Made by a program: the position numbers and the translations under genes. Positions 60,626-62,652 of a stretch of DNA of 64,000 nt are shown here, piece by piece. This stretch comes from an uncultured Rickettsia sp. (GTDB lineage: Bacteria > Pseudomonadota > Alphaproteobacteria > Rickettsiales > JABSSG01). Every line of letters begins with the position of its first letter. Within the stretch, counting starts at the first letter, position 1. The stretch covers positions 962 to 64,961 of the forward strand of contig CAZEVK010000001.1 of assembly GCA_964515755.1 (NCBI GenBank), given 5' to 3'. The notes under the pieces are model-generated. The model saw only the letters and a list, made by a program, of their open reading frames with translations. It made no database searches and was not told where the DNA came from.

Positions 60626-61480
60626 TTAATATTCTACATTACTGACTTTTAAAATATTTTTACAATGTTGATACATCTCTTCTTCTAATTTCAGTTTATT
60701 AGCGATATTTAAATTATCTACAGTATAGGCTATATGCTGAATAATACTTTTTAATGTCTCAATAACAGTTTTTCTTTGTTTATTTGCTTGCATTCCATGC
60801 ACAGTTTTCAGATTATGCAGCCTATCAATAGCTTTAACTAACATTGCCTCTGTATCATCAGCTTTTATAAGGTCATTCATTATTTCTTCAATAGATAGTT
60901 TAGTTTCATTATGATTTTCATCATGTTTTATTCTAGTTAATCTCTGAACTATTTCAGCTATTCTTGAATTAAATTCTTTGCTTATTAGTTCCACAGTACA
61001 AGCACCATCTTCAACAACATCATGAAGTATTGCAGCTACAATTATGTTAGTACTAAATTTATATCCCATAACCATACTAGCAACAGCTAGTGGATGTGAA
61101 TAATATGGCTCTCCAGTTTTTCTAAATTGCCCATCATGCCATTTCTTGGCAAATATGATAGCTTTTTCTATTAGCTTTATATTAACCCGGTGGCTCTCAT
61201 GTTCAACCTTGTCTGCTATTTTATTTAGAAAGCTTCGTGCATATTTGCAATTTAGGTTATGCATTTTATACTCCTCCCCTAAACTATATTTTTTAGGAGG
61301 ATATTTTTTCGAACTGCCCTTCTCTTCAGAATCATTAACATCTGGATAATCGTAATACACTCCTTTCTTAATTTCTAACTTCTCTATATATTTTATTGCC
61401 CACCAATATGCAATAATAGTAGGAATAAACATAACTAAAACTGCATAAGAACCTACATATTTAGACAAGAATGCTAGCAT
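60626..61480 (-). CDS. SpoT/RelA-type HD-domain (p)ppGpp-hydrolase-like protein whose N-terminus is the last TM helices of the upstream MFS pseudogene
   Basis: HDGQFRKTGEPYYSHPLAVA...AAILHDVVED (HD_4). Residues 1-30, MLAFLSKYVGSYAVLVMFIPTIIAYWWAI, are TM-like. Confidence 0.75.
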   Translation of the reverse strand: MLAFLSKYVGSYAVLVMFIPTIIAYWWAIKYIEKLEIKKGVYYDYPDVNDSEEKGSSKKYPPKKYSLGEEYKMHNLNCKYARSFLNKIADKVEHESHRVNIKLIEKAIIFAKKWHDGQFRKTGEPYYSHPLAVASMVMGYKFSTNIIVAAILHDVVEDGACTVELISKEFNSRIAEIVQRLTRIKHDENHNETKLSIEEIMNDLIKADDTEAMLVKAIDRLHNLKTVHGMQANKQRKTVIETLKSIIQHIAYTVDNLNIANKLKLEEEMYQHCKNILKVSNVEY

Positions 61481-62652
61481 GACAGACGTACCTACATACG
61501 CAAAAACAGAAGATACACCAAAGGTAGTTGCTAAAATTGTAAAACGCTTTGCAACTGGTATATATGTTTAAAACAGGATACTTCAACTCCAGCTATACAT
61601 AATGCAGGTAGAAACGTTATGAATTGTAAAATAGATAACAAAAATAAATTTGTAACATGAGATAAACAATATGGCACAAATAACAAACAAAGAGCAAAAA
61701 ATATAATATTTATTTTTGCCATTTTAACAGGATGATATTTTGTGAGCAAATATGCTGTTATTGACATACCAATAACAGTCAATATGGATACTTTTAAATT
61801 TTGATAAATGACCTTATCTGCACTTAATTCTAAAGAATCTGTCATGAAGGAAGCAAAATATATATATGTAACATAGAAACAAACAGGACCAATAAATCTA
61901 ATAAAAAAATATGCAGCTATATTTTTTTTATCAATTTTAATTTTTTCCTTATATCTATTCTTGTGATTGCTAAGATTGATAACTTCTAATTTTATTTTTA
62001 ACCTTCTCTTATAATCTATAAATTCAGGAGTTTCTCTTAGTCTGGTTCTTGCAACCAGCCCTACAATAGCGATAAACGCTCCAATCCAAAAAGCTATCCC
62101 TCCAATTCATAGACAAATAAAGAGATGCAGAAGCTACTATTAAAGCAAATACTCCCCCTAGTTCAGATTGAATACTAATAATATTTCCATATATATATCT
62201 AAAAGGAGATTTAAACGTTTCTGCTAAGTAAAGTTGAGCACCAACCTTTTCTCCCATAGAAGAAAAACCTTGTAATGCTCTGCATGAGATCACTACAATA
62301 CTAGCTATAATGCCTATCTCTGCATAAGTACTAATAGTTGCCATCAAGACACAACAAATAGCCATTGTTACAGTAGTTATTATAATAGTGTTTTTACGTC
62401 CAATATGATCACCTATCCAACCAACCAATAACCCTCCGATAGGTCTAAGAACAAAGGTAGAGCAAAAGGTAAATATAGCAAACATTTCAGCTACTAATTT
62501 ATCACCTTGTGGAAAAAAGAGTTTGTTTAGTAACACTGCCATGTGAACATACAGCATCAAATCAAAATACTCAAGAAATGTACCAATAGATAATAGAAAA
62601 CAGTTTCTTTTTGCTCTCTTGTTAATGTATTTGTACTTGTATAATTTGACAT
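61481..62652 (-). pseudogene. ProP-like MFS transporter with at least 3 frameshifts; its 3' part is in frame with the HD-domain ORF
   Basis: ATG at 62652 gives MSNYTSTNTLTREQKETVF. Shift at a T-run gives LLSIGTFLEYFDLMLYVHMAV...LRPIGGLLVGWIGDHIGRK...SMNW. Shift at a G-run (~62100) gives (R)IAFWIGAFIAIVGLVARTRLRETPEFIDYKRR...AGVEVSCFKH. Shift at ATATATA (~61560) gives IPVAKRFTILATTFGVSSVFAYVGTSV-MLAFLSKY... Confidence 0.7.

Follow-up and report, generated by a model that had tools for sequence, protein, structure and literature searches.

The alarmone (p)ppGpp is a starvation signal, and signalling by it in obligate intracellular bacteria is poorly understood. In Rickettsia felis, seven spoT genes adjoin transporter genes of the MFS/ProP type and transcription is reported for all 14 spoT paralogs (Ogata et al., 2005; PMC1166351), and the name rickSpo was given to Rickettsiales-specific hydrolases by Atkinson et al. 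(2011; PMC3153485). The adjacency of MFS and spoT genes in Rickettsia has been known since 2005; fusion of the two in one polypeptide is mentioned neither in these papers nor in Jimmy et al. (2020; PMC7229694), and full-text literature searches for an MFS-SpoT fusion found no description of one. Here we describe such a fusion, in broken form, in a 64,000-nucleotide stretch of an uncultured Rickettsia sp. (contig CAZEVK010000001.1, positions 962 to 64,961; hereafter the window, with a G+C content of 32%). At 62652-60629 on the reverse strand, a 12-helix MHS-type MFS transporter reads into a SpoT-type HD_4 hydrolase domain through three frame changes, as seen by three-frame translation and coordinate mapping. 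The locus is almost certainly a genuine, recently inactivated ortholog of a Rickettsiales family in which a 12-helix MHS-type MFS transporter is fused to a cytoplasmic, rickSpo-like HD_4 domain.

The fusion gene and its relatives

The reverse strand of 62652-60626 is without a single long open reading frame (ORF) and carries a chain of ORFs of 31, 178, 104 and 284 aa. Translation from the native ATG stops after 31 codons, the frame changes lie at ~62600, ~62100 and ~61555, and the coding sequence runs in a first frame over 62652-62596, a second over 62593-62099, the first again over 62097-61561 and the second over 61558-60629. The parts are given below, with reference to the 114-kb JGI metagenome contig L038, which carries the best match to the gene (P0001; 669 aa, 67% identical), and to contigs L048, L049 and L055, which represent a second haplotype of the window (TM, transmembrane helix).

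62596..62652, reverse strand: native start codon and codons 1-19 (MSNYTSTNTLTREQKETVF), encoded as the 31-aa ORF 62557-62652; ~88% DNA identity to L038
62596..62600, reverse strand: frameshift 1, where a short T run at codon ~20 is one base shorter than that of the intact ortholog (GT-TTTC vs GTGTTTTT); common to L048, L049 and L055
62099..62593, reverse strand: MFS piece from TM1 to ~TM5 (LSIGTFLEYFDLMLY...LSMNWR), holding the 178-aa ORF 62024-62560; Sugar_tr E 9.7e-12, MFS_1 E 2.2e-9, TIGR00883 E 1.8e-35
62098..62101, reverse strand: frameshift 2 at the NWR/IAFW junction before TM6, where GGAGGG holds an extra base; this base is kept in L048, L049 and L055
61561..62097, reverse strand: MFS piece with TM6, the central cytoplasmic loop and TM7-TM10 (IAFWIGAFIA...SCFKHI); MFS_1 E 9.7e-7, TIGR00883 E 4.7e-10
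61553..61565, reverse strand: frameshift 3 in CATATATACC, in the conserved KHFPxxKRF motif before TM11; two bases more (equivalent to one fewer) than L038, in an ATATATA stretch at ~61553
61190..61558, reverse strand: FPxxKR, TM11, TM12 and a family-specific cytoplasmic linker (YxNYP...EYxxxxxxCxYS), from the homolog alignment
60629..61189, reverse strand: SpoT/Rel-type HD_4 hydrolase domain, intact, with its stop at 60626-60628; HD_4 83.6 bits against a Pfam gathering score of 27.2

The last piece, 61558-60629, reads PVAKRFTILATT...KVSNVEY; its HD part also matches the N-terminal hydrolase portion of RelA/SpoT models among the Pfam and NCBIfam profiles, and the HD_4 match was seen again in a scan of the whole genome. 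On TIGR00883 the window fragments score 122.8 and 39.1 bits. In L048, L049 and L055 the G run of frameshift 2 additionally carries a substitution, at 62099. Exact-protein look-ups of the 284-aa and 178-aa window ORFs matched no record. A reading made earlier from the letters alone (the original prediction) had proposed that an MFS transporter runs into an HD domain here, and the translation, the mapping and the Pfam/NCBIfam domain matches bear out that layout. Its peptide, its FP-x-x-x-R motif and its frameshift positions all agree with the mapping and with the alignment to L038; its length estimate of ~675 aa compares with 676 aa for the read-through and 669-671 aa for orthologs, and the HD part that it called intact is indeed an uninterrupted ORF of 284 aa (60626-61480).

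The original prediction had also suggested a database search with the reconstructed protein, and such a search, using the read-through of the four pieces with an X at each joint, finds that intact MFS-HD fusions exist in relatives and are common among Midichloriaceae-like Rickettsiales. More than 100 best matches of 650-705 aa align over 98-99% of the query and contain Pfam domains of both kinds, MFS and HD_4; those with names are called 'MFS transporter' or 'HD domain-containing protein' and come from Candidatus Bandiella, Ca. Aquarickettsia, Midichloriaceae metagenome-assembled genomes (MAGs) and a Rickettsiales endosymbiont of Peranema. Among 400 genomes sampled from the window's order, 18 of the 39 in one family (f26) have intact colinear fusions and none was found in the 10 from the window's own family, and the Rickettsia-like family f19 has MFS-only homologs of ~440-460 aa with 39-47% identity. 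The HD catalytic columns (the His of the HP motif, HD, ED and D..HN) are invariant across 75 fusions. Three intact members, from Bandiella euplotis (P0010), Ca. Aquarickettsia rohweri (P0008) and the metagenomic L038 (P0001), are colinear with the window copy over 98-99% of its length at 50-67% identity and share its linker motifs and the invariant HD catalytic residues, P0001 from the same chromosomal position; the window copy differs from them in its three frameshifts and in a recombined MFS block. No experimental characterisation of the intact fusions was found in the searched literature. The orthologs have no HD gene with an N-terminus of its own, which the original prediction had named as a possible refutation, and the proposed ancestral protein of ~675 aa, with an MFS transporter followed by a C-terminal SpoT-type HD domain, is found intact in many relatives as well as at the same position in the sister species.

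That position is defined by L038, in which a DUF2330 gene (on the opposite strand), the MFS-HD gene, tRNA-Arg(TCT), lptD, surA and rsmA follow one another in the window's order. The LptD and DUF2330 proteins of L038 and the window are 95% identical, and the DNA aligns colinearly over 11.4 kb with 89% identity overall. As this alignment indicates, the sister species carries the fusion gene intact at the same chromosomal place.

The transporter part is, by its profile matches, a divergent relative of the MHS family and not a ProP ortholog. P0001 matches TIGR00883 end to end (1-393 of 400), and this is its best-scoring subfamily model, at 186.3 bits against a cut-off of 443.45; on the ProP equivalog NF007927 it reaches 120.7 bits against a cut-off of 544. 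The description 'ProP-like' in the original prediction is sound at the level of the MHS subfamily and fails in the sense of a ProP ortholog, the scores being far below the cut-offs. Like E. coli ProP and the rest of the MHS family (TC 2.A.1.6, TIGR00883), the fusion has a 12-helix MFS fold; unlike ProP, it has no osmosensing C-terminal coiled-coil, which is replaced by the linker and HD_4 domain. An AlphaFold (AF2) model of P0001 (pLDDT 87.4, pTM 0.84) has 12 TM helices and a helical HD domain, with a low-confidence linker between them, and Foldseek matches it to MFS structures over ~460 columns with TMt ~0.7, the matches among PDB structures being confined to the MFS part. The 12-TM fold is recovered for the ancestral reading and for the ortholog; the window as encoded cannot make it, given three frameshifts.

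Rickettsia rickSpo proteins resemble the window HD domain in being HD-only SpoT-type hydrolases, 37-45% identical to it as stand-alone genes of Rickettsia-like genomes, and they are linked to the closest MFS-only homologs (41-47% identity). They are unlike it in being separate genes, arranged tail to tail on opposite strands in all six loci examined. In these loci (L004, L005, L034, L035, L036 and L037, of genomes G028, G013, G230, G182, G299 and G221) the stand-alone HD gene lies ~30-210 bp from the 3' end of the MFS-only homolog, and relating this convergent pair to the colinear fusion would need an inversion.

Further, independent broken copies of the fusion were noted elsewhere: L060 and L061 in Candidatus Bandiella euplotis (G281); L059; L032 in G274, a genome with two fusion copies that have stops; and L006 in G020, where the MFS part is in three pieces. 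One Bandiella euplotis copy has a single frameshift, its HD remnant being annotated as a 292-aa protein (P0277, an HD-domain protein); a second copy there has a 95%-identical linker and HD domain and no MFS sequence upstream. Short HD ORFs elsewhere lend no support to a genuine class of TM12-tethered hydrolases, as the two that were checked, one from Bandiella euplotis and one from an ENA contig, are what is left of fusions with frameshifts.

Frameshifts and the age of the damage

All three frame changes lie in short runs or simple repeats and the read-through looks perfectly functional, as would be expected if they were assembly or sequencing errors and the organism had an intact fusion of 675 aa. 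We consider this very improbable. L048, L049 and L055, two of them found with a pattern across frameshift 2 in metagenome contigs and the third by exact-protein look-up, are independent assemblies, each of a different metagenome sample. Over 3.8-6.4 kb they match the window at 99.7-99.8% identity; together they amount to a single second haplotype, and all of them keep the three frameshifts, frameshift 3 included. The runs concerned are just 3-4 bases long. In the alignment with L038 the neighbouring genes are free of frameshifts, every indel inside the flanking genes being a multiple of three, so the assembly is not generally frameshift-prone. Moreover, substitution density is raised specifically in the MFS part, where it is 4.5 times as high as in coding sequence of the flanks (p = 0.02). 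The frameshifts are genuine and not assembly artefacts, since three independent assemblies reproduce them; this also speaks against their repair by reads, which the original prediction had named as a possible refutation. Heritable disruption in three assemblies and relaxed constraint in the MFS part together mark the gene as a pseudogene.

The second haplotype has gone further, with two extra single-base insertions at window positions 62228 and 62376, both of which fall in the MFS part. This bears on a different explanation, in which recoding at the three sites, by transcriptional slippage or programmed ribosomal frameshifting, would still yield a full-length fusion. Those sites do look slippery (a T run, a G run and an AT repeat), and the read-through is otherwise undamaged. 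Such recoding would nevertheless require three separate events of different sign, the sister haplotype has five frame changes, the intact ortholog and ~100 homologs need none, and an Rfam scan of the region found tRNA only and no other element; we give this explanation next to no credence.

The damage is recent, to judge from the read-through, because 117 of 119 conserved columns are kept and three-frame translation meets no in-frame stop. Conserved columns are those at least 93% conserved in 58 homologs; intact P0001 keeps 117 of them and P0002 116. None of the 81 conserved MFS columns is altered, from which neutral divergence since inactivation is estimated to be less than roughly 1.6%. To call the transporter 'decayed', as was done originally, is right as regards three genuine frameshifts and overstates the damage to a sequence in which so many conserved positions remain. 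As separate observations on the haplotypes, all 12 substitutions between them (57625-64000 against L048, L049 and L055) are transitions, and both of those in the DUF2330 gene are non-synonymous (P78L and C128R).

Mosaic ancestry of the transporter module

Comparison with the sister ortholog reveals a block of low identity inside an otherwise well conserved region. DNA identity between the window and L038 is 92-97% in the flanks, ~88% over the first ~110 bp of the gene and 89-94% in the HD domain (61189-60629); it drops to 70-76% over 62540-62160 and to 52-65% over 62160-61190, with a sharp recovery at ~61190. The block and the divergence of its surroundings (dN and dS, non-synonymous and synonymous divergence, window vs L038) are as follows.

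61190..62540, reverse strand: low-identity block of MFS and linker, ~1.35 kb, 52-76% vs the sister ortholog; flanks and HD domain 89-97%
LptD: dS 0.26, dN/dS 0.086
DUF2330: dS 0.32, dN/dS 0.065
HD domain: dS 0.49, dN/dS 0.065
Central MFS and linker segments: dS saturated, dN 0.26-0.39

Differences in the central segments concentrate at third codon positions, so the low MFS identity reflects old divergence between functional alleles. Pseudogene decay was considered as its cause and rejected: besides the third-position pattern and the saturated dS, neutral decay since the species split cannot exceed the flanking dS, which with the HD domain sets a bound of ~0.25-0.5.

Trees of the separate segments are mutually incongruent for the window, P0001 and P0002. 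In the HD segment the window and P0001 are sisters at a distance of 0.08; in the first MFS segment (MFS1) the partner of the window is P0002 (support 0.89); in the second (MFS2) the window belongs to another clade, together with P0003 and P0014 (support 0.994); and in TM11-12 plus linker P0001 pairs with P0002 and the window lies outside on a long branch. P0014, the nearest relative in MFS2, sits in an unrelated chromosome region. These comparisons show that the transporter-plus-linker module was swapped by homologous recombination with a diverged family member in at least one event. The lineage that received the recombined module is more probably that of the window than that of the sister; the donor was not found in databases.

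The surroundings of the gene are themselves variable.

60334..60410, forward strand: tRNA-Arg(TCT), with lptD on one side and the pseudogene on the other; same-genus genomes differ in the genes that lie beyond it

Three same-genus genomes share the lptD-tRNA-Arg arrangement, with LptD identities to the window of 82%, 61% and 58%, and none of them has a fusion remnant at the syntenic site. Since these genomes hold unrelated genes there, the locus beside tRNA-Arg is variable and the fusion gene patchy in the genus. The stretch beyond the tRNA (compared in L045, L046 and L047) resembles a hot spot of insertion or replacement; it contains MFS-HD and DUF2330 in the window and in L038, and L038 also has OTU, patatin and Band_7/NfeD genes there. 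The spacer of 430 bp between the pseudogene start and the DUF2330 gene differs from L038 by a 23-bp indel at 62861-62891 and several 1-bp indels, and is 88-93% identical apart from these. At the other end of the gene, a 1-bp indel at 60638, just before the stop, gives the window HD domain a different and slightly longer tail (...KVSNVEY) than that of the sister (...KISK). The nearest genome in the collection, of the same genus and with the LptD identity of 82%, is L050 (contig CAMCSP010000011.1 of G001, in 110 contigs), whose record bears the title 'MAG: Rickettsia typhi isolate LH-02apr19-40'; this is probably a wrong label, because the genome lacks Rickettsia-like MFS/HD gene pairs and is placed in a different family.

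Fate of the hydrolase domain

The HD domain retains the catalytic motifs of a SpoT-type hydrolase. It matches solved Rel/SpoT hydrolase domains in PDB with E values of 3.5e-22 to 1e-9, its YYSHP, LHDVVED and IDRLHN motifs aligning with the HP, HD, ED and DRLHN motifs of those structures, and the catalytic residues H53, H77, D78 and D144 of RelSeq (as in Ogata et al., 2005), together with the ED and HN motifs, are all present. In fold (HD_4) and in these motifs it is like the hydrolase domains of long RelA/SpoT homolog (RSH) enzymes (PDB 8acu and 1vj7) and the Mesh1-type small alarmone hydrolases (3nr1 and 5vxa). It is unlike the long RSH enzymes in lacking synthetase, TGS and ACT domains, and in that the ancestral HD domain was attached to a membrane transporter. 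No synthetase domain accompanies it; in this genome PF04607 matches only a bifunctional long RSH of 728 aa (HD_4 plus synthetase) on contig C28, an enzyme to which the window HD domain is 34% identical. These two make up the RSH set of the genome, with no other RSH gene, and the richness in spoT-like fragments that the original prediction associated with Rickettsia-type genomes is not borne out for this one.

Whether the domain is still used can be approached through the window and the second haplotype, the only comparison that post-dates the shared frameshifts. Their differences are distributed as follows.

61481-62652, MFS part, 1172 bp: six substitutions and two insertions
61190-61480, linker and TM12, 291 bp: one substitution (E to K)
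60626-61189, HD domain, 564 bp: no differences
Flanking coding sequence, 3517 bp: four substitutions

Relative to coding sequence in the flanks, the MFS part has an excess of differences (p = 0.02), which fits relaxed constraint. It has eight where the HD domain has none (Fisher p = 0.043; 0.09 when substitutions alone are counted), a weak hint of continuing selection on the hydrolase.

There are two candidate starts from which the hydrolase could be translated.

61478..61480, reverse strand: ATG 61480, the first canonical start of the HD ORF; its 284-aa product would begin at the end of TM11 and retain TM12; weak AGG 10 nt upstream
61262..61277, reverse strand: GGAGGAG-TATAAA-ATG (ATG 61264), candidate start in the linker with a strong Shine-Dalgarno sequence and a 6-nt spacer; a soluble 212-aa product is predicted

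The Shine-Dalgarno sequence of ATG 61264 is far better than that of ATG 61480, the start put forward in the original prediction; in this genome GGAGG stands before 0.4% of internal ATGs and before 2% of the first ATGs of long ORFs. At both columns the window alone among 61 family members has Met. A promoter and terminator scan was at chance level, with 18 found against 17.7 expected.

It is possible to assemble these observations into a course of events. The three frameshifts abolish the transporter in this species, the MFS-plus-linker block having been exchanged with a diverged family member, perhaps before or around inactivation. The HD ORF, keeping all its catalytic motifs, could then be made as a stand-alone, Mn2+-dependent (p)ppGpp 3'-pyrophosphohydrolase, by internal initiation on the old transcript at ATG 61264 (soluble) or at ATG 61480 (TM12-tethered). 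That the domain is still made and used in this way is, on the sequence evidence, about evenly balanced.

The whole locus could also be imagined as dead, its HD ORF intact only for lack of time to collect lesions and no product made or needed, a possibility that we take seriously and hold to be a little short of even. Several observations favour it and weigh against continued use of the hydrolase. First, inactivation is recent, and an intact HD ORF with low dN/dS would be expected even without selection in so short a time; the HD dN/dS of 0.065 against L038 is uninformative on current use, because all but the last few per cent of that divergence came before inactivation, and the polarised amino-acid changes in the HD domain (three derived in the window, four in P0001, seven ambiguous) show no window-specific acceleration. 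Second, the haplotype test rests on nine events. With a haplotype divergence of 0.1-0.7%, no hits in 564 bp has a probability of ~0.02-0.1 under neutrality, and the non-coding intergenic stretch 62653-63080 (428 bp) is likewise unchanged. Third, the long RSH has its own hydrolase domain and is predicted to provide that activity, so the HD remnant may be redundant; in addition, the residue after the ED motif is Gly in the window and Ser or Thr in 56 of 58 homologs. Fourth, a broken MFS part with an intact HD ORF recurs in other lineages (Bandiella euplotis and an ENA contig), a pattern expected from random first hits in the longer N-terminal part. Finally, the Shine-Dalgarno sequence at ATG 61480 is weak, the GGAGG before ATG 61264 stems from the linker's conserved Gly-Glu-Glu codons, and the genome as a whole makes weak use of Shine-Dalgarno sequences. 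A dead locus is in turn less easily reconciled with haplotype differences that are concentrated in the MFS part and absent from the HD domain (p ~0.04), with the placing of both extra frameshifts of the second haplotype in the MFS part, and with a strong Shine-Dalgarno sequence and ATG just upstream of the HD domain.

If the hydrolase is indeed retained, the locus may represent gene fission in progress, from a fusion to a free rickSpo-type hydrolase as in Rickettsia. In the intact family, transport could be coupled to local alarmone hydrolysis, such that nutrient import lowers (p)ppGpp. Taken together, these ideas would make the MFS-HD fusions 'transceptors', in which transport of a host metabolite gates a tethered (p)ppGpp hydrolase, and would make the window a family member caught in fission, its hydrolase kept with its own start at 61264, on a route to the free rickSpo found beside MFS genes in Rickettsia and Orientia. 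We regard this wider scenario as speculative and rather unlikely to hold as a whole.

The event in the window is itself ordinary reductive evolution, a fresh pseudogene. It is well dated, the syntenic ortholog being intact and the second haplotype more decayed, and so offers a clean natural experiment as to which of the two halves can be spared. What is new here is a catalytically conserved fusion family whose members exchange modules by recombination, a decay series across two haplotypes, and a weak signal that the hydrolase outlives the transporter. The numerous spoT fragments of Rickettsia and Orientia, which tend to adjoin ProP-like transporters, have lacked an explanation since 2005. In a large group of Rickettsiales a single polypeptide combines the transporter with a SpoT-type hydrolase whose catalytic residues are invariant; this argues for a functional linkage between the two and offers a testable hypothesis, transport-coupled alarmone hydrolysis. 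If the transceptor reading were true, obligate intracellular Rickettsiales would have a means of sensing nutrient supply that is independent of the ribosome.

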